Shown piece by piece: positions 4,429 through 48,527 of a stretch of DNA of 64,000 nucleotides (positions are counted from its first letter, which is position 1; every line of letters begins with the position of its first letter). The stretch is from an archaeon (lineage in GTDB: Archaea; B1Sed10-29; JAJRYS01). Under the pieces are notes generated by a model. That model did no database searches, had not been told where the DNA came from, and was given only the letters and a program-made list of their open reading frames with translations. Both the position numbers and the translations under genes were made by a program. The stretch covers positions 5,442-69,441 of the forward strand of contig JAJRYS010000018.1 in the NCBI GenBank assembly GCA_024275665.1, given 5' to 3'.

Positions 4429-4638
4429 GAAAACCAGCCCCTCATGCTCTTCTTGCTCTTGCTTTCTTCAGCTTTGCTTCTCTTTCTCTTCTTGCTTTCT
4501 CAGCAATCCAGAAAGCTTCTGCTTTTTCAAACGTTATTTCTCCTTTCAACACTCTGAGTTTGAGCTCCAAAGGCCATTCTTTTGGAAAATGAATCATGAT
4601 TGTATTACTCATTACTCGTTTAAAAAAAGCAAAGCAAA

Positions 4639-19939: not shown

Positions 19940-20526
19940 AATGAACAAAATAAGAATAAAAAAATTATCAAAAAAAAGAAGAGTACCTTCTTGAATTATT
20001 TCTAGGAGATGGGTATTTTTCAATAGATAAGAATAAGCATTACAAAACTTGTTTTTGTCTAAATCCAAAAAAAGACTTCTTGATAATGCTTAAAGTGGTA
20101 TTATTACTAAAAAAGATTGAGTTAAATTCTTATCTTATTAATAATAATGGATGTGTTGAGGTAAAAGTAAATTCAATACTATTTATGGATTATATGAAAG
20201 AAAGTTTGAAAAAATGGTGGGATGAACCGGAAAGTTATTTACTTGGAGTTATTAGTGGTCTTATTGATTCTGACGGAAATATTGGCAATGGTGAAATAGT
20301 AATAACAAATAAGAACAAAAGTATTTTAAAGAAAGTAAAAGAAATTATTAATAAGAAGAATATTCACACTAAGTTGTGGATAAAACAAAACAAAGGAAAA
20401 GAGGATAAGTGGAAGTTTAATATTTACAAATTGAGAATTGGAACTGCTTTAAAAAACCTTGATCATTGTTCTTTAAAGGTTAAGTTCTTGAATAGTGGGG
20501 ATTCCGCAGCGACTAACAGGCATTAA
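19940..20526 (+). CDS. LAGLIDADG homing endonuclease, double-motif, apparent frameshift in A8 run near 5' end
   Basis: ATG at 19940 gives MNKIRIKKLSKK then stop; the other frame, open from 19959, reads …EEYLLELFLGDGYFSIDKNKH… and continues into the listed ORF containing LGVISGLIDSDGNI: two LAGLIDADG motifs about 100 aa apart. Confidence 0.7.
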
Positions 20527-20647
20527 AAATGCTTGTTAGTTGTAAGGGTAGGGCAGCTTGGAGTGCCCGTCGGGCTCATATGCGTTCCGGTTCCAAAAGG
20601 AACGCGGAAACACCCGAAGGTCAGAGGTTCAAATCCTCTCCCCGCTA
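20508..20647 (+). tRNA. initiator tRNA-Met(CAT) with two putative introns (acceptor stem after pos 4, and 37/38)
   Basis: A1:U72, AGCG|…|GGG acceptor pairing with CCCCGCT, U8A9, D-stem GGGC/GCCC with A14 and G18G19, anticodon stem with three G:C (TCGGG/CCCGA), loop CTCATA, T-arm AGAGG-TTCAAAT-CCTCT, discriminator A. Confidence 0.6.
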
Positions 20648-22535: not shown

Positions 22536-23795
22536 TCAGTCTGATGAGAGTATTTTTCTTACGTGAGGGGAGAGGGAGTAGATGTACCCTCTTCCCATCA
22601 TGTTTTCTCTTTCTTCTATCAAGGGATAAAGGTCTTTTATAGTGGGCCTGTTTTGTGGTTCGTTGTATTTTCCTTGCAGTCTTTTAAGCATGTGCCTCAC
22701 AGTATCATACTTGTCGTTTATTGATTTTGCTATTTCTACTGCTGTTTTAGGCTCTTCTTCAAACAAGAAAAGGAGTATTCTTCTTTGAAGAGGAGATATT
22801 GCTGTTAATAACTCGTGTTTTTCAAGATTGTAAGTTTGTTTTGGTACAAACTTGGGTGGTTCTCCTTCAACTAATTTTTCAAGGGTGCTTGTTTTTTCTT
22901 CAACTACCTCTATTGCTGGTTCTTCTTTTAACTCTTCTTTTATTGTTGAAAAACTCGGCTCATATATTGGTGTTGCTTCATCTCTTTTCATTTTAAAAAA
23001 TCTTTCAACATCTTCTTTTCTTATCTCATGCTTGTTGTTTTCAATAGCAAACTCTATCATGCGTGAGCAGTTTTCAATTATTTCTCTTGGAATATATTTT
23101 GAGTGTTCTGCTATTTTTTTCATAGCGTTTTCAGTAAATAAGTAATTGTTTGACTTCGCGAGCACTTCTATTCTTTTTTTAATCATGCCTATTGATTCTT
23201 TTTCTGTAAGTGGTCTTAGGCTTTCACATAATTCAAGCCTGTCAATTAAATATTCAGGTATCTTTTTATTTCCTTTTACTAATTCTGTTTTTCCAGCAAA
23301 TATTATTGAGAAGGAGGTTCCGCTTTCTGATAAATTTCTTAAGTATGAAAAAATGTGTTCATCTAATGCGTGAGCTTCGTCAATTATTAATAGTGTTTTT
23401 TTTCTTATTTGTTTGTTTATTTTTTCATAATCATTTTCATCTATTCTTATTAATCCTATTTTTTGAAGTAATTGGTTTCCACATAGCTCTTTTATTTTTT
23501 TTATTAAGTATGTTTTTTCAGGTGGTTCTTCAAATAAAATAACATTGTATTTGTTTTTGAAGTCTTCTGCTATTTTTTTTATCAGGGCTGTTTTTCCAAA
23601 TCCGTACTGCCCGTATATTACTGCGTAGTTTTTGTTCAGTTCTATGAATGAATAAACTTTACTTAGTATGTCTTCGAATCCTACGAATAATTCTGGCATA
23701 GTTACGTGAGTAAAAGGGTTTTTTACTTCCCATCCTTGTTTCTGCTGCCATTCTTCTATTTTTTTTATTTTTTCTTCAAAAAACATGTTTTTCAT
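22536..23795 (-). CDS. AAA+ ATPase with C-terminal winged helix (archaeal ATPase / AAA_22-like), not Orc1/Cdc6
   Basis: Walker A GQYGFGKTAL, Walker B LIIDEAHALD, C-terminal wHTH (LQRRILLFLFEEEPKTAVEIAKSIN…VRHMLKRL); lacks the Orc1 N-terminal LPxRE motif. Confidence 0.7.
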   Translation of the reverse strand: MKNMFFEEKIKKIEEWQQKQGWEVKNPFTHVTMPELFVGFEDILSKVYSFIELNKNYAVIYGQYGFGKTALIKKIAEDFKNKYNVILFEEPPEKTYLIKKIKELCGNQLLQKIGLIRIDENDYEKINKQIRKKTLLIIDEAHALDEHIFSYLRNLSESGTSFSIIFAGKTELVKGNKKIPEYLIDRLELCESLRPLTEKESIGMIKKRIEVLAKSNNYLFTENAMKKIAEHSKYIPREIIENCSRMIEFAIENNKHEIRKEDVERFFKMKRDEATPIYEPSFSTIKEELKEEPAIEVVEEKTSTLEKLVEGEPPKFVPKQTYNLEKHELLTAISPLQRRILLFLFEEEPKTAVEIAKSINDKYDTVRHMLKRLQGKYNEPQNRPTIKDLYPLIEERENMMGRGYIYSLSPHVRKILSSD

Positions 23796-24579: not shown

Positions 24580-24861
24580 ATGATTACCACTATTTTCTTC
24601 AAGGAAAAACCACTCCGTACCCTAGTATCTTTGGCTGACAATGAAAAAGTTTGGTATGCTTCAATGTTGTGTAAAGAAACAGACTGCACTTATCCTCATA
24701 TGCTGAAAATTCTCGGAATGTTTGAAAAAGAAGGACTGGTTAGAGCAGAGGGGCAGGGAAGGATTAGGATAGTAAGGTTGACTGAGAAAGGAGAAGATCT
24801 GGCTACTGAAGTGAAGGCACTGCTTAGGAGAATTGAAAAGCTTGAAGGTGGGAAAGAGTGA
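24580..24861 (+). CDS. winged-helix DNA-binding protein (93 aa)
   Basis: HTH-like YPHMLKILGMFEKEGLVRAEGQGRIRIVRLTEKG; 4-nt overlap with downstream GNAT-like gene. Confidence 0.5.
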   Translation: MITTIFFKEKPLRTLVSLADNEKVWYASMLCKETDCTYPHMLKILGMFEKEGLVRAEGQGRIRIVRLTEKGEDLATEVKALLRRIEKLEGGKE

Positions 24862-25427
24862 TTAGGGAAGCAGGAATAGAAGACCTTGATGCTTTGGTTG
24901 ATGTTTATCAAAAGGATGGTAGGAAGCATTCAAAGCCGTTAGGAGCTTATCCTGTTGCTGATTGGATTCTGCGCAAGACTGCTGTAGTAGTTCTTCATGA
25001 GAACAAGAAGGGAAAACCAGATGCTTTCATAGTAGTAAGGCCGAAGGGAGAGACAGCGAGCATTGACATGCTTAGTGTTAAGAGGTCTTGTAAAGAAGCT
25101 AATGAGGTTAAGAAGAGGTTGGTTGAGGAAGCTGGTAAGAAGTCAGGAGCGCGTGTGCTTACTGTTTATGTTTCTAAGAGGGACAAGCTTGTTGATTTTT
25201 TCAAGAAGAATGGGTTCAAGTTGGTTGAGGAGATCAAGGAGAGCAAGCAACTATTCTTTGCAAAAACTTTACGTTTATCCAGGAGGAAAAAACCTACAAG
25301 AATATTGCACAAAAAAGGGGTTTTTAAAAAACAGTTGAAAGAAAACCTAAGAAAACTTGAAGAAACATCAGGAGATGAGTTTGGGCCTGACTTGATTGAC
25401 TTGCTTGAAGAGCAAGGAAAATTATAA
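24858..25427 (+). CDS. GNAT-like acetyltransferase fold protein with Lys-rich tail
   Basis: Weak GNAT core (…IVVRPKGETASIDMLSV…KKRLVEEAGKKSGARVLTVYV…FFKKNGFKLVEE). Confidence 0.4.
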   Translation: MIREAGIEDLDALVDVYQKDGRKHSKPLGAYPVADWILRKTAVVVLHENKKGKPDAFIVVRPKGETASIDMLSVKRSCKEANEVKKRLVEEAGKKSGARVLTVYVSKRDKLVDFFKKNGFKLVEEIKESKQLFFAKTLRLSRRKKPTRILHKKGVFKKQLKENLRKLEETSGDEFGPDLIDLLEEQGKL

Positions 25428-25787
25428 GTTTATGCTTAGTTTTTGTTCGTCAAATTCTATTACTTTATTGTTAGCAAGGGTTTTCCAAGCTTCTCCAAGT
25501 CTTCTCACAGCAGTTGAGAATTCAGTGTTTAAGTAGTACTTCATTTGCCTGCGTTCAACCAAACCTAGCGACCTTAAGCGTTTGAATACTTTGTGCATTG
25601 TTGCTTTTGGAATTCCTTTTTCTTTGCAAAGCCTGGCAATGTCATAACCATCTGCTCCTTTCTTTTCTTGTATTGTTTTTAAAAACCAAGCAGCTGCTAT
25701 CCTGTACTTATCTTGTTTTGGATAAATAACTCTGATGAAACCCTCAAAGCTCATTCCTGTTGAAATGCGTTCATGATGAAAGTCCAT
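25422..25787 (-). CDS. winged-helix transcription regulator
   Basis: GYDIARLCKEKGIPKATMHKVFKRLRSLGLVERR. Confidence 0.5.
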   Translation of the reverse strand: MDFHHERISTGMSFEGFIRVIYPKQDKYRIAAAWFLKTIQEKKGADGYDIARLCKEKGIPKATMHKVFKRLRSLGLVERRQMKYYLNTEFSTAVRRLGEAWKTLANNKVIEFDEQKLSINL

Positions 25788-25966: not shown

Positions 25967-26590
25967 TTAGGAGAACATCTTTAGTCTTTGTCCATGAGAG
26001 TAAATCATTAAAATGAACAAGCCTGCTGTGAAGAAAATTAGGAACAAAGGGAATAAGAAGCTTGCAATTGATGGGAACCCTATTGCTTCTGCCACTTGGC
26101 TTATGCTTGAATTCTGCACGCTTACTACGAGTATTGGGGTTGTCTTACTTGTTATTGTTTCCTTGTTTGTTTGTTCAAGTCCCTTAATGCTTCCTATTTC
26201 AAAGAAGTTGGTTTGCGGTTGTGCTTTTTCTATTTTGTATTTTGGTATCACCATTGCAAAAGTTGTTAATAAAAAGAAGAGGATTACAACAGCAAACACA
26301 GGTTTTAATATTTCCACATGGCTTGCTCTTCTTCTGCGTGTTTTCCACTCTTTTTTCAAGAGTTTTACCTTAGTAGTTTTTAAGTTTTTTTCATCTAATT
26401 CTATTATGATTGAGCCAGTATAACCACAATCAGAGCAATAGTATTTTTCTGGTATCCCAAGTCCTACTATTTCTCCTGATTCTGGGTGCAGGGAAGCATA
26501 ATCAATGTTCCTGCTCCCGCATTTGGGGCAGATTAATGCTTTTCTTGTTGTTCTTGTTTTTATTGGCTTTTTTTTCTTTTTTGCAACCAT
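25967..26590 (-). CDS. zinc-ribbon membrane protein
   Basis: CPKCGSRN…CSDCGYTG then 3-4 TM helices. Confidence 0.45.
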   Translation of the reverse strand: MVAKKKKKPIKTRTTRKALICPKCGSRNIDYASLHPESGEIVGLGIPEKYYCSDCGYTGSIIIELDEKNLKTTKVKLLKKEWKTRRRRASHVEILKPVFAVVILFFLLTTFAMVIPKYKIEKAQPQTNFFEIGSIKGLEQTNKETITSKTTPILVVSVQNSSISQVAEAIGFPSIASFLFPLFLIFFTAGLFILMIYSHGQRLKMFS

Positions 26591-26591
26591 T

Positions 26592-26963
26592 TTAATCCCT
26601 GCTTATAACTCTCAATATAGTGTAAGTGTCGTAAATGTTTTTAGTTTTGTCATAACGGCTTTCATCATGCTCTATCACTCTTATGTTTATTTTATACTCT
26701 CCTGGCTGTATTGAATGCTTTCCGTACAATGGTATTGGTATTGTTTTTTCAGTTTTTGGTTTTATGAACCCTATTCTTTTTACTGCTTCTCTTTCCAAAC
26801 CAATCTTGTTAAAGCCAAGAGAGAAAGGAATTTTCACTATGAGCGAAACAAGTTTTGATTCATCTGAGTCATTTTTCACATACACGTTTAGCACTACTGG
26901 TTCTTTTTGTCCAGCAACCATTCTTATTGGAAGGAAGCTTGTAGTGATTTTCATGATAATCAA
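26592..26963 (-). CDS. hypothetical protein
   Basis: 123 aa ORF directly abutting upstream gene. Confidence 0.3.
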   Translation of the reverse strand: MIIMKITTSFLPIRMVAGQKEPVVLNVYVKNDSDESKLVSLIVKIPFSLGFNKIGLEREAVKRIGFIKPKTEKTIPIPLYGKHSIQPGEYKINIRVIEHDESRYDKTKNIYDTYTILRVISRD

Positions 26964-27192
26964 TTACTTATTATGTGTTTTTAACTCTTTTCATACGGGC
27001 ATATTTTGCATGAAAATATAGCACATAGTAAACATAATATTATTGCTTTTTGTTAATAATAACAATAGTATTAACAAAATAATATTATATTTTGGTTATC
27101 TTTTTTATTTTATTGTTTTTTATTAATATTTAACATTTTTTGAAACATTATTGCACTGAATTTTTTGTCTCACAAAAACAAAAACCATAAAA

Positions 27193-27783
27193 TTATTGCA
27201 AAAATTGTTTGTGGATACGGAAATTCAATAACTGCTCGCTGAAAGCATTCAAAACACGCCTAGCAGTGTCTTGTTTTTGCTTCAACCCAGGCACTATGCT
27301 ATTAGGATATACAAACTCAGAGAATTTGTAGTATAATTCCTCAAGCTCGTCGTATAATCCTTCAGCTTCCCTGATTCTTCCTTCTGCAAGAAACTGCATT
27401 CCCACTCGCTTCAACTCTCCGATGGCATCTCCTAAGCCAAGCAAGTAATATTCTGCAGGAATGCTCAAGACAGGTAGTTTTTTGTTCTTCAAATAATTCA
27501 GAAATATCATCAGCTCTGCGTATTCCTGGTAAGCAGTTCCAAGCACTGGTTTCACCATGTCAGGGTGTTTTTTCAACAGCTTCTCAATCCTCTTAATCTT
27601 CATGTCAATCTTCTTAGCACTCTTCCAAGCCTTATCAACCTTCCCCTTCTGCACGTCCCTAATAGCCTGAGCGCACAAGGGAATGATCTCACGCTGTGCT
27701 TTAAGCGCTTCTTCTCTTACCTTGACTTTTTCATCAAGCTCGCTGATAATTTTTTTCATCATTCCAACAACTCCTTTGTTCAT
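27193..27783 (-). CDS. translin-family protein
   Basis: All-helical 196 aa; YLLGLGDAIGELKRVGMQF matches the translin/TRAX YLxGLADLTGELMR motif. Confidence 0.55.
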   Translation of the reverse strand: MNKGVVGMMKKIISELDEKVKVREEALKAQREIIPLCAQAIRDVQKGKVDKAWKSAKKIDMKIKRIEKLLKKHPDMVKPVLGTAYQEYAELMIFLNYLKNKKLPVLSIPAEYYLLGLGDAIGELKRVGMQFLAEGRIREAEGLYDELEELYYKFSEFVYPNSIVPGLKQKQDTARRVLNAFSEQLLNFRIHKQFLQ

Positions 27784-28316
27784 AATTCTTTTACTAAAAA
27801 GTTCCTCTTTTTCTCATCTTTTTTAAAGCCCATTTTTTCATAAAAACCAACAGATTTTCTTAAGCTTTTCACAAAAACCTTCCTCACGCCTCTTTTTTTT
27901 AGTTCTTTTAACATGAAGTTAAGTGCTTTTGCTCCGACACCTTTGTCCCTCAGCTCTTCAGGAGCCCCTGCATTATTTGTTAATGCTTCAAAAGGAAAAA
28001 AATAATCTATTATTGCTGTTTTTCCATCTTTTTTTATCATTACTGAAACATTGCCAACAGGAACGCCTTTCTTATGAAATAACTTTTTCCTATAGTTTAA
28101 TTCATTGACAAGGCTTGTTTTTTTTCTCATTTGGTTAATTACTTTTTCATCAACAAAAACTAAGGAAATTAATTCAGTAGACCCATCAATTTTTTTAAAT
28201 TCCATTGGAGAATCAATCCAAGCAATTCCAGGGTTCTTAATTCTATCCTTCATTCTCAGCCTTTTTTTCTCAGCAATCTTACCCCAGGGTGTTTTTGAAC
28301 GATGTTTGTTAGTCAT
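27780..28316 (-). CDS. GNAT family N-acetyltransferase
   Basis: Motif A RDKGVGAKALNFMLKELKKRG and …VGFYEKMGFK. Confidence 0.6.
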   Translation of the reverse strand: MTNKHRSKTPWGKIAEKKRLRMKDRIKNPGIAWIDSPMEFKKIDGSTELISLVFVDEKVINQMRKKTSLVNELNYRKKLFHKKGVPVGNVSVMIKKDGKTAIIDYFFPFEALTNNAGAPEELRDKGVGAKALNFMLKELKKRGVRKVFVKSLRKSVGFYEKMGFKKDEKKRNFLVKEL

Positions 28317-28645
28317 TTTTTCGCCTTCTTCCTGACCACATAATATTTGTTGCGCCTGCCAATGACTTCCTCAACTTCGTGAACCCATTCATTCACTTGC
28401 CGCATTTTCCTTGGAATGAACCAGATGTTGTACATGCCGATTATCAGTACTGCTAAGTTCAAGTATATGAAGATAGAATCACCTAATAACAAGCTATAAG
28501 CAAGCAACAAAGCCACTCCACTACACAAGAGCAGAGAATAAGCTAAAGGCATGTCGCTTTCCTTCTTTTTCCATACTCTTATGGTTGAAGGAAGCCAGGC
28601 TACTACTAGCAATAATGAACCTATAATTCCAATAATTTTAATCAA
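28313..28645 (-). CDS. small membrane protein (3 TM)
   Basis: IGIIGSLLLVVAWL…LLLCSGVALLLAYSLLL…YLNLAVLIIGMY. Confidence 0.4.
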   Translation of the reverse strand: MIKIIGIIGSLLLVVAWLPSTIRVWKKKESDMPLAYSLLLCSGVALLLAYSLLLGDSIFIYLNLAVLIIGMYNIWFIPRKMRQVNEWVHEVEEVIGRRNKYYVVRKKAKK

Positions 28646-29166
28646 AGCTCTTTCCTCCTGTATGTCCCAGTGCTATGAAGTGATATGTTACTTTCATATT
28701 TTCCTTTTTTTTCTCTTAGTATTTCCCCAGATTTTTCTTTTAACATTCTGGCAATAGGTTTTGGGATTTCTTTAAACTTCTTGCGTAGAATAGATAATTT
28801 TTGCCCACTGATATACACTTTTTTCAGAATAACTTTATTCTTATTTCCTCTTGCTATCAAGCACAAAGCATCATATTCTTCAGGAGAAAGTTCTAATGTT
28901 TTTTCTTTATTGAGAGGGATTAGTACAACTTCTCTTTTTCTTATTTTTTTCCTATTATTTTTATGAATTATTTCTTCTTCGAGAGTAGTATGTATTGGAA
29001 AAGGAAATAATATTGGCCGCATGATGTTTTCTTTTTTTATTTCAGGAAGGTTTTTTGCGTTCTTAACATTCTTTGTTAAATATGAGCTTAAGTTTGACTT
29101 TTTACCTATTAAGAGTTGATGGAGCCCCCTTTTCCGCGTTTTCATATGCTCATCTCCTTTTAACAC
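28642..29166 (-). CDS. hypothetical protein with possible GerE/LuxR-like HTH
   Basis: LSPEEYDALCLIARGNKNKVILKKVYISGQKLSILRKKF resembles LuxR-type HTH. Confidence 0.3.
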   Translation of the reverse strand: MLKGDEHMKTRKRGLHQLLIGKKSNLSSYLTKNVKNAKNLPEIKKENIMRPILFPFPIHTTLEEEIIHKNNRKKIRKREVVLIPLNKEKTLELSPEEYDALCLIARGNKNKVILKKVYISGQKLSILRKKFKEIPKPIARMLKEKSGEILREKKGKYESNISLHSTGTYRRKEL

Positions 29167-29668
29167 TTTTCCAAGCTTCTTTTTTTCTCTTTTTAATTTC
29201 CTCTTCTTGTTTTTTAATCAAGTCCCTGAAATAATTTTTAACCCTCTTTGATTGGAATGAATCATCTAATTTAAGAAACATTGCTGCTTGTTCCAACAGT
29301 TCCTGCTTCCTTTTATCAATGCTAAACTTTCTTGCAAGTTTTTTTCCTTTCTTAATGTCTGTTAACATCGTTCCAAATACCTTTTCTTCTTTACCAGGTC
29401 TTATTACTAAACCTTTCCCCTTTGGAAGAAAGAATACTCTTCGCACTCCCCCCTTTTCGTCAAGGTAGGTTTCTATGAAAAGAGGTTGCATGAAAACATT
29501 TTTTTCAAGGCCTCTTTCCATCATCTTTGCTTTTATCTCCTTATCTTTTGCAAGGTCTTTTATTATTGTGCGGGAAACTACAGTTTTTTTTCCTTTAAGT
29601 ATTCTTCCTATATCTGTGAATATGCGAGTATATTGTGTTAGTTTAGGATTTTTTTTAACTCTCCTCAT
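29150..29668 (-). CDS. hypothetical basic protein
   Basis: 172 aa; first gene of overlapping five-gene operon. Confidence 0.35.
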   Translation of the reverse strand: MRRVKKNPKLTQYTRIFTDIGRILKGKKTVVSRTIIKDLAKDKEIKAKMMERGLEKNVFMQPLFIETYLDEKGGVRRVFFLPKGKGLVIRPGKEEKVFGTMLTDIKKGKKLARKFSIDKRKQELLEQAAMFLKLDDSFQSKRVKNYFRDLIKKQEEEIKKRKKEAWKSVKRR

Positions 29669-29754
29669 TTAATCAACCTTTTTTGGTAGTGTCTTTTTAA
29701 ATCTTGTTTTTCTTTGCTCATTATTTTTATTCTTTTCTTATTATAAAATAAGGC

Positions 29755-48357: not shown

Positions 48358-48527
48358 CGCCTCGGGCAGGATTTTCTCACCGTCCAGTTGGCTTTTTTCC
48401 GCTGTGAAGCGGAAACCAGGCCACTTCAGCTTCAGCTGAATGTGGTCTCAGCCAGCCGGATACGGATGTTCGAACCTGCGGTCTCACGGTTAACAGCCGT
48501 GCGCTTTAGCCACTAAGCTACCGAGGC
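48358..48527 (-). tRNA. tRNA-Asn(GTT) with about 100-nt intron in T-loop (59/60)
   Basis: Minus strand: GCCTCGG TA GCTT AGTGGCTA AAGC G CACGG CTGTTAA CCGTG AGAC CGCAGG TTCGAA [insert] T CCTGC CCGAGGC G. Confidence 0.6.

Follow-up and report, generated by a model that had tools for sequence, protein, structure and literature searches.

Organisation of the locus

The locus lies on the minus strand of the window, i.e., the whole 64,000-nucleotide stretch of archaeal DNA analysed here, and comprises five genes in the same orientation. From upstream to downstream, they encode a lysine-rich protein (g5, 29150..29668, 172 aa), a basic protein with a weak LuxR/GerE-like helix-turn-helix (g4, 28642..29145, 167 aa), a protein with three transmembrane helices of the SemiSWEET/PQ-loop clan (g3, 28313..28645, 110 aa), a divergent GNAT acetyltransferase (27780..28316, 178 aa), and a TRAX-like translin, the subunit of archaeal C3PO (27193..27762, 189 aa). 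The original prediction, made from the sequence, had presented them as a string of genes overlapping by 4 to 17 nt. The read-out of open reading frames (ORFs) confirmed the five frames where they had been placed (172, 174, 110, 178 and 196 aa, from g5 to translin), but the 17-nt overlap between g5 and g4 and the 4-nt overlap between the GNAT and the translin are probably artefacts of taking the longest ORF. In g4, a GGAG ribosome-binding site precedes an ATG at 29145, and the recorded protein has the corresponding 167 aa (174 aa from the GTG at 29166). In the translin, AGGAG precedes an ATG at 27762 (the longest form, of 196 aa, starts at 27783). The homologue in L081, the closest relative compared, has its start and its ribosome-binding site at the same places of the alignment and is likewise 189 aa long. 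Given these starts, the likely junctions differ from the longest-ORF overlaps: a 4-nt gap between g5 and g4, 4-nt overlaps between g4 and g3 (TTGA) and between g3 and the GNAT gene (ATGA), and a 17-nt gap between the GNAT and translin genes.

Codon usage supports the coding status of all five ORFs: in every gene, frame 0 has a positive log-likelihood (+0.15 to +0.53) and the two remaining frames have negative ones. The length of an ORF says little by itself in this DNA, as mononucleotide shuffles of 14 kb produce stop-free runs of 114 codons on average, with a maximum of 199. The GC3 of g5, g4 and the GNAT gene is 0.26-0.28, whereas that of the membrane, translin and NucS genes is 0.46-0.48. 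Searches of the rest of the window revealed no paralogues of the five genes. A second GNAT-like gene in the window (24858-25427) is unrelated to the one in the cluster.

Upstream of g5, a divergent intergenic region (29669..29754) separates the cluster from NucS, encoded on the plus strand, and is the putative promoter region. It contains two TATA-like boxes on the minus (sense) strand, TTTAAAA from 29701 and TTTATAA from 29747; g5 starts about 30 nt past a TATA-like box. At the other end, two T5 tracts on the minus strand just past the translin stop codon (27174..27184) are likely the archaeal oligo-T termination signal that ends the unit. The sense strand of the GNAT gene has five internal T5-T7 tracts, among them a T7 at 27996-28002, and the translin ATG is preceded by a TATA-like box at a distance of 65 nt, so the translin may also be expressed independently. 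A scan for sigma-70 promoters and hairpin terminators, which is unsuited to archaea, gave background-level counts.

The translin is an archaeal C3PO subunit with an intact active site

The predicted translin/TRAX assignment was borne out by a match to Pfam PF01997 above cutoff (40.1 bits for a cutoff of 25.9, E = 5e-10), and among solved structures its closest relatives are C3PO nucleases of archaea. The profile of the translin family (A1) matches AfTRAX (PDB 3zc1) with E = 3.4e-36 at positions 4-187 and NEQ131 (5jr9) with E = 1.8e-19, and the match of the protein to NCBIfam PRK14562.1-6 has E = 3.9e-46, yet lies under the equivalog cutoff. The family signature, YLLGLGDAIGELKR, spans residues 113-126 of the ORF in its 196-aa form, the numbering of which we use below.

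In NeC3PO, Glu82, Glu85, Asp117 and Glu121 coordinate cations, and Arg124 binds the substrate (PMC5100593). All these acidic residues are retained: the tetrad, E-x-x-E ... D-x-x-x-E, aligns with the residues of AfTRAX and NeC3PO, with E87, E90, D119 and E123 at the positions of the four cation ligands of NeC3PO and a conserved R126 at that of Arg124, whereas R164 of NeC3PO is replaced by Q169. Across 21 aligned homologues, three of the four (E90, D119 and E123) never vary and E87 hardly does.

The known archaeal C3PO complexes are homo-octamers, i.e., AfTRAX of A. fulgidus (3zc0/3zc1) and NEQ131 of N. equitans (5jr9/5jrc/5jre), and the translin of the window is homologous to them over its full length and similar in size, albeit with an identity of ~30-35% (judged by eye from the profile alignment) and in a different gene context, which here includes a SemiSWEET-like partner and lineage-specific inserts. 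By homology, it most likely forms a homo-oligomeric C3PO barrel like those of A. fulgidus and N. equitans. Such barrels take single-stranded RNA or DNA inside and cleave it with two divalent cations held by the tetrad. In eukaryotes, C3PO combines Translin and TRAX in a hetero-oligomer with ties to RNAi and tRNA processing. It shares the Pfam family with the protein of the window, and in its structures (human 3pja/3qb5, Drosophila 3riu/3axj) the region of the TRAX-type catalytic motif aligns with the translin profile (E = 2e-13 to 5e-8), but the window has a single TRAX-like gene and no RNAi context. The translin gene is widespread in archaea and its neighbours are variable; to our knowledge, archaeal C3PO has no established in vivo role.

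The membrane gene encodes a SemiSWEET-like protein

The three-helix membrane protein is also real, and the profile of its family (A6) against solved structures marks it as SemiSWEET-like, with matches to 4qnc (1.7e-9), 5uhq (5e-9), 4rng (1.6e-8) and 4x5m (2.6e-8). The single sequence falls under the cutoffs of NCBIfam SemiSWEET_2 (6e-7, 29.5 bits for a cutoff of 80), Pfam LAB_N (3e-5, 24.3 bits for 26.7) and Pfam MtN3_slv (1e-3, 19.1 bits for 23.7), and 11 of the 15 family members match MtN3_slv (10 match LAB_N). About 75 residues align with these bacterial transporters, in the three-helix bundle that they have in common, and g3 keeps the proline of the first helix and the invariant asparagine (N63). 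It differs from them in the PQ motif, where the proline is kept but the glutamine is replaced (AWLPSTI), and in an extra C-terminal tail that is basic, cytoplasmic and conserved (GRR-NKYYVVRKK). It also has a leucine at the position that aligns with the sugar-binding tryptophan of LbSemiSWEET.

The GNAT, g4 and g5 proteins are divergent

The acetyltransferase matches the Pfam profiles Acetyltransf_10 (31.6 bits, cutoff 23.6) and Acetyltransf_1 (30.1 bits, cutoff 20.7), and the intact motif A claimed for it is indeed present: R123-D-K-G126-V-G128-A conforms to R/Q-x-x-G-x-G/A, the loop that holds the pyrophosphate of acetyl-CoA. The Pfam alignments cover residues 120-171 only, in the C-terminal half. 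A basic stretch of ~35 aa extends the protein at its N-terminus, and a conserved insert of ~10 aa precedes motif A. It shares motifs A and B and the beta4-alpha3-beta5-alpha4 core with GNATs (RimI, Naa50, GCN5 and TacT being the nearest), but unlike the known ones is recognisable by sequence only in its C-terminal half and fits no subfamily. An AF2 single-sequence model has a mean pLDDT of 54.6, under 50 in the N-terminal half and mostly 70-83 in the last 50 residues. Searched with Foldseek, this low-confidence model matches GNATs exclusively (probability 1.0, E ~2e-4), with TM-scores of just 0.43-0.54; the tRNA-acetylating toxin TacT (E = 4e-4) is among these otherwise generic GNATs.

The profile evidence for the GerE-like helix-turn-helix proposed for g4 is weak, with no Pfam match at E<=1, NCBIfam matches to the LuxR-type MctR, NarL and MadR at E = 0.007-0.16 (all at residues 79-132) and a PDB match to NarL at E = 0.37, but the motif, ELSPEEYDALCLIARG, is kept in the one orthologue found. 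Pfam and NCBIfam gave no RHH/DUF1778 signal in g4, and its AF2 single-sequence model (pLDDT 45) is uninformative.

The g5 protein (20% lysine, pI 10.4) has no significant match in Pfam or NCBIfam, and searching 1.84 billion representative proteins exhaustively with HMMER recovered nothing but itself. It is also absent from L081, from L083 (the only other carrier of g4 and the GNAT gene) and from every other locus compared; on these searches, g5 is an orphan gene. We rejected the same status for g4 and the GNAT because both have clear orthologues in L083: that of g4 (L083:2923-3417) is 30% identical (E = 8e-15) and that of the GNAT (L083:3424-3978) is 43% identical (E = 2e-37) and keeps motif A. 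Word-indexed protein searches with g4 and the GNAT returned only the query proteins, and missed these orthologues; their negatives are thus unreliable and further instances may exist. A metagenome scan with the GNAT alignment gave only generic matches to motifs A and B, none of them near a translin.

Relatives share the membrane and translin genes around a variable slot

The comparison includes one close relative of the lineage of the window, L081, in which NucS, the membrane protein and the translin have 79%, 76% and 83% amino-acid identity, respectively. Blastn and junction alignments show the two DNAs to be colinear except for two stretches of the minus strand that L081 lacks. The first (28634..29705, ~1.07 kb) carries g5, g4 and their leader. 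On one side of it lies the ancestral NucS/SemiSWEET promoter region, whose part nearest to NucS (29706-29754) has its homologue in the corresponding intergenic region of L081, and on the other the start codon of the SemiSWEET-like gene; L081 has ~50 nt in its place. The second (27776..28326, ~0.55 kb) carries the GNAT gene and sits between the 3' end of the SemiSWEET-like gene and the translin ribosome-binding site, where the 443-nt spacer of L081, which contains a 44-aa ORF, is unrelated.

The comparison covered 16 relatives whose translin is at least 52% identical and whose upstream region is readable. In 13 of them, the membrane gene is found upstream of the translin. The SemiSWEET-like gene is within 10 nt of the translin, or overlaps it by 4 nt, in L002, L003, L099, L100 and L101; a 4-nt overlap often joins the pair. 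In related DPANN lineages the pair usually lies beside DNA-repair genes, e.g., NucS, Lhr, DtdA and RecJ. Judging from these gene orders, the conserved core in this DPANN clade is a SemiSWEET-like three-helix gene followed by a TRAX-like translin. Between the two, other relatives have unrelated genes: a 138-aa cysteine-rich protein (L001), an M16 peptidase (L005 and L006), a SAM methyltransferase (L103) or a 60-aa ORF (L085). The g5/g4 region has no similarity to Lhr helicase, M16 peptidase or the small ORFs of the slot, and we discarded the idea that it is a decayed relic of such a gene.

The pair formed by g4 and the GNAT gene occurs in one of the 16 relatives (L083), and g5 in none. In L083, whose translin is 63% identical to that of the window, the order is different (membrane gene, g4, GNAT, translin), g4 abuts the GNAT gene with a 6-nt gap, and the GC3 contrast is weaker (0.25-0.30 vs 0.32-0.38). 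Its sisters L002 and L099 have neither gene.

A probable evolutionary mosaic around a C3PO gene

An ordinary nuclease gene of the archaeal TRAX/C3PO type and the small membrane partner that usually goes with it make up the cluster, together with three fast-evolving extra genes in this one DPANN lineage. We consider it probable that it is an evolutionary mosaic rather than a dedicated five-part system. In such a history, g5 and g4 would have come in after the ancestral divergent promoter and ahead of the membrane gene, and the divergent GNAT gene after the membrane gene and ahead of the ribosome-binding site of the translin. This placement makes a common transcript from the old promoter probable, so that all five genes would be transcribed from it and end at the T-tracts after the translin. 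Within this mosaic, g4 and the GNAT gene seem to behave as a patchily distributed, fast-evolving pair, and nothing mechanistic ties the added genes to the nuclease. The recurrence in L083, at 63% translin identity, fits an ancestral cluster of membrane gene, g4, GNAT and translin followed by repeated loss as well as it fits two insertions; such an ancestral cluster would imply some functional link among the genes.

It is rather unlikely that g4 and the GNAT gene form a self-contained accessory cassette, i.e., a regulator and its enzyme or something akin to a GNAT toxin with a helix-turn-helix antitoxin, that lands in the slot or is lost from it and is unlinked to the nuclease. The patchy distribution among sister lineages, the adjacency of the two genes in L083, their low GC3 and the conserved helix-turn-helix-like motif of g4 would suit such a cassette, as would the presence of TacT among the structural matches of the GNAT, although GCN5 and other generic GNATs match equally well. 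However, the SemiSWEET-like gene parts g4 from the GNAT gene in the window, which is atypical of toxin-antitoxin pairs; systems like TacAT or AtaRT have a small RHH/DUF1778 antitoxin directly upstream of the GNAT, where the window has the SemiSWEET-like gene, and g4, of ~165 aa, is not an antitoxin of that type. Signs of mobility are also lacking: we found no integrase at the cluster and no noteworthy repeats, direct or inverted, on its flanks, PHROG profiles matched the five proteins only with generic acetyltransferase families, viral contigs gave no relatives, and phage records gave one weak, partial match to the GNAT. PADLOC-DB defence models also gave no match with the five proteins at E<=1.

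A second alternative places the functional link in the conserved core. The SemiSWEET-like protein and the catalytically intact C3PO would be a real functional couple in the DPANN clade, with the slot between them acting as a hotspot for accessory enzymes in one transcript; we regard this as quite unlikely.

The original prediction had proposed a stress, defence or RNA-turnover module of five genes around the TRAX nuclease. Shared orientation and near-zero spacing speak for it, as does the lack of a separate ancestral translin promoter (homology with L081 upstream of the translin starts just 13 nt before the ATG) and the clustering of g4, the GNAT, the membrane gene and the translin in L083 too. 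Yet this single module is very unlikely and is largely refuted by absent co-conservation: L081 lacks g5, g4 and the GNAT gene, g4 and the GNAT are missing in 15 of the 16 relatives and g5 in all 16, and the order of the genes differs between the sole two carriers. The coupling of GNAT and translin that it supposed finds no echo among the neighbours of translin homologues (77 upstream and 76 downstream, 153 in all), since the 25 commonest Pfam families of these tallies include no acetyltransferase; on the upstream side, OGG/HhH-GPD leads with 26 of 77. The PADLOC result gives no backing to the defence role. Neither is the surrounding DNA the accessory stretch rich in hypothetical genes that it was taken for, as the block from RecJ to a wHTH gene (~24.5-33.8 kb of the window) is syntenic with L002, except for an MFS gene without a match there. 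Finally, that g5, and possibly other added ORFs, are chance open frames in purine-rich, AT-rich DNA is scarcely credible, for even if local shuffles reach 199 codons without a stop and g5 lacks homologues and family matches, its frame-0 codon signal (+0.53) is the strongest of the five with the other frames negative, it begins ~30 nt past a TATA-like box, 4 nt separate its end from the RBS-led start of g4, and the orthologues of g4 and the GNAT mark these as real genes.

The mosaic corrects a tempting over-reading, in which the five-gene string resembles an undescribed translin system; set beside its relatives, the locus shows a variable slot around an archaeal C3PO gene of the housekeeping kind. 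The two additional stretches lie exactly between promoter and start codon and between stop codon and ribosome-binding site, and may illustrate a way for DPANN archaea with reduced genomes to gain genes without new promoters. The neighbours of C3PO in DPANN are consistently genes of DNA repair or nucleic acids (NucS, Lhr, OGG, Endo IV, Endo V, RecJ) together with the SemiSWEET-like protein, and suggest testable hypotheses on the role of C3PO. The pairing of SemiSWEET-like protein and translin is the sole mildly new lead from the cluster itself. If the couple were true, a membrane-associated nuclease and a transporter may salvage the products of nucleic-acid breakdown in host-dependent archaea, and the slot could plug accessory enzymes (GNAT, methyltransferase, peptidase) into their shared transcript.

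Gene organisation of the cluster

The original prediction described five co-directional genes on the minus strand, and their ORFs were found at exactly the coordinates it gave. In order of transcription, they are g5 (29150-29668), g4 (28642-29166 as the longest ORF), a membrane protein (g3, 28313-28645), a GNAT acetyltransferase (g2, 27780-28316), and a translin (g1, 27193-27783 as the longest ORF). The DNA around the cluster is purine-skewed (34% GC) and its shuffles give up to 199 stop-free codons, so that ORF length alone is weak evidence of coding. The codon-usage log-likelihood of every ORF is positive in its own frame and negative in the other two, and all five look coding. The genes are tightly packed, with TTGA and ATGA junctions, but two of the overlaps initially reported probably result from the choice of the longest ORF. 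The most likely start of g4 is the ATG at 29145 (GGAG upstream; recorded protein of 167 aa), and that of g1 is the ATG at 27762, which is preceded by AGGAG and aligns, as does this ribosome-binding site, with the closest homologue. Given these starts, the first and last junctions are likely gaps, of 4 nt and 17 nt, with TTGA and ATGA at the two in between.

Families of the encoded proteins

Profile searches upheld the assignment of g1 to the translins: it matches PF01997 (40.1 bits, cutoff 25.9) and the NCBIfam PRK14562 models (E down to 3.9e-46), and a profile of g1 with 20 homologues matches the C3PO subunits of A. fulgidus (AfTRAX, 3zc1, E=3e-36) and N. equitans (NEQ131, 5jr9, E=2e-19), with weaker matches to eukaryotic TRAX than to these archaeal subunits. 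The catalytic acidic residues, which the original prediction had proposed to check, are present (E87, E90, D119, E123). In the alignment with homologues, E90, D119, E123, and R126 do not vary and E87 hardly does; together, E87, E90, D119, E123, and R126 align with Glu82, Glu85, Asp117, Glu121, and Arg124 of the N. equitans enzyme (NeC3PO), where the four acidic residues hold two catalytic cations and their mutation impairs cleavage (PMC5100593). The catalytic apparatus of g1 is thus intact. By its sequence, g1 is a new member of the archaeal C3PO family, which was already known, and by homology it would form an oligomeric barrel enclosing single-stranded nucleic acid for two-metal cleavage. 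On a JGI contig (P0026, 3533 nt), a called protein of 316 aa has a Translin domain as well as NucS_N (PF21003). Gene calling probably joined the two across the NucS/translin neighbourhood, though the fusion could also be real.

Alone, g3 scores under the family cutoffs; a profile of 15 members of its family matches solved SemiSWEET transporters (e.g., 4qnc at 1.7e-9). Unlike these, the family carries a conserved basic tail at its C-terminus, and its PQ motif is altered. In the alignment of the SemiSWEET-like proteins encoded upstream of translin (A6, including g3), the conserved cytoplasmic tail reads HE[IV]EEI.GRKGKKYYH[VI]KK. It is missing in the canonical PQ-loop homologues of loci L010 and L012, and is enlarged to long K/T/R-rich tracts in L005, L006, and L104.

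Two Pfam GNAT models match g2 above cutoff, aligned over residues 120-171 only, and its motif A (R-D-K-G-V-G-A) is intact, as had been proposed. Its AF2 model, of low confidence (pLDDT 54.6), has secondary-structure elements in GNAT order, and its Foldseek matches are GNATs. A very weak GNAT-like ORF of 189 aa (Acetyltransf_10, E=0.036), 2 kb downstream of the cluster (24858-25427, plus strand) and kept in locus L002 (38% identity), is unrelated to g2. In g4, to which a GerE-like helix-turn-helix had been ascribed, the LuxR/GerE-like signals are only weak. For g5, family searches gave no significant match, and 1.84 billion representatives, searched exhaustively with HMMER, held no homologue. 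Word-indexed searches with g4 and GNAT returned only the query, despite orthologues of both in locus L083 (2923-3978, ENA contig), which rule out that they are singletons. Such searches are thus not reliable negatives; lysine-rich, low-complexity words may crowd their candidate list, and negatives for proteins of this kind call for caution.

Conservation of the cluster in relatives

In the closest relative, L081 (amino-acid identity of 79% for NucS, 76% for the membrane protein, and 83% for translin), the DNA departs from colinearity at only two points. Positions 28634-29705, with g5 and g4, correspond there to about 50 nt and intervene exactly between the SemiSWEET start codon and the promoter region retained next to NucS; positions 27776-28326, with the GNAT, correspond to an unrelated 443-nt spacer and separate the SemiSWEET 3' end from the ribosome-binding site of translin. 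In the wider clade (16 relatives with translin identity of at least 52% and a readable upstream region), a SemiSWEET-like gene precedes translin on the same strand in 13, and in five loci (L002, L003, L099, L100, L101) it is at most 10 nt away or overlaps by 4 nt. The slot between the two holds unrelated genes that vary by lineage: a Cys-rich protein, an M16 peptidase, a SAM methyltransferase, or small ORFs. Among the loci compared, orthologues of g4 (30% identical, E=8e-15) and of the GNAT (43%, E=2e-37) were found only in L083, where the order is NucS, membrane protein, g4, GNAT, translin, unlike that of the window; both are absent in its sister lineages L002 and L099.

The cluster is probably a mosaic: a conserved SemiSWEET-like/translin pair, in a neighbourhood of nucleic-acid repair, and three added genes. 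Fast-evolving and lysine-rich, g5, g4, and the GNAT would have joined the pair in the window lineage; their GC3 is 0.26-0.28, against 0.46-0.48 in the flanking conserved genes. Co-transcription of all five genes is plausible, given that the added genes come after the old promoter and that translin retains no ancestral promoter of its own, but it is not assured: the sense strand of the GNAT has five T5-T7 tracts, the translin ATG is preceded at 65 nt by a TATA-like box, and there are T-tracts past the stop codon of translin. No evidence ties g4, g5, or the GNAT to the mechanism of the nuclease. None of the three matches a defence-system profile, their PHROG matches are limited to generic acetyltransferase families, and no orthologue turned up when viral, phage, and metagenome collections were scanned.

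On present sampling, there may instead have been an ancestral membrane protein-g4-GNAT-translin cluster, with repeated losses. That g4 and the GNAT form a self-contained accessory cassette, possibly regulator-enzyme or toxin-antitoxin-like, agrees with their patchy distribution and their adjacency in L083, but toxin-antitoxin hallmarks are lacking and the SemiSWEET gene splits the two in the window, and we regard it as unlikely. The five-gene stress, defence, or RNA-turnover module originally proposed is very improbable, being contradicted by the distribution across relatives: g5 occurs in none of them, and g4 and the GNAT in L083 alone. The supposed undescribed system is not a conserved entity. 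A full-text literature search found no paper joining translin, GNAT, and archaea. Least credible of all is a spurious g5, given its frame signal and position.

Genomic neighbourhood

Judged by its translin relatives, whose records are labelled Micrarchaeota, Iainarchaeum, or 'archaeon' (best GTDB match 67% identical), the window is placed in a DPANN lineage. The cluster is flanked by genes for NucS, D-aminoacyl-tRNA deacylase, an MFS transporter, and a RecJ/DHH protein. From RecJ to a small wHTH gene (about 24.5-33.8 kb) the window is syntenic with L002, where the MFS gene has no match; what had been described as a hypothetical-rich accessory stretch is conserved core genome. The hypothetical block downstream of translin (25967-26963 and 25422-25787), also found in L001, L002, and L004-L007, consists of clade-specific core genes, not accessory ones, and encodes a 123-aa protein with a marginal Pfam match (Transglut_C Ig-like domain, E=0.096), a 207-aa zinc-ribbon membrane protein, and a 121-aa wHTH protein. 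Farther away, a low-GC stretch (18-24 kb) encodes a 419-aa AAA_22/STAND-like ATPase (22536-23795, minus strand), and L082 has a similar AAA_22 gene (4476-4605) at a comparable distance from translin. Rfam places two tRNAs just over the gathering score (20546-20642, 32.0 bits; 48455-48520, 32.7 bits), neither found by ARAGORN; the first, of 97 nt, immediately follows a LAGLIDADG-domain ORF (20080-20526) and may be an archaeal tRNA with an intron or some other atypical feature.

In a Pfam scan of the neighbours of more distant translin homologues (77 upstream, 76 downstream), acetyltransferases are missing from the 25 commonest families both upstream and downstream. An OGG_N/HhH-GPD 8-oxoguanine glycosylase heads the upstream neighbours (26/77), lying next to translin and on the same strand in more distant Micrarchaeota (L019-L080; e.g., L025:9097-9975 and L030:9090-9968, with translin at about 10001). 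Downstream, five of these loci have Endonuclease V and three have the MJ1316 RNA-end recognition domain; both recur near translin homologues, as do Lhr, NucS, and Endo IV. Archaeal translin tends to lie among nucleic-acid repair genes. The pairing of a SemiSWEET-like gene with C3PO and the variable slot between them are modest, previously unremarked observations.
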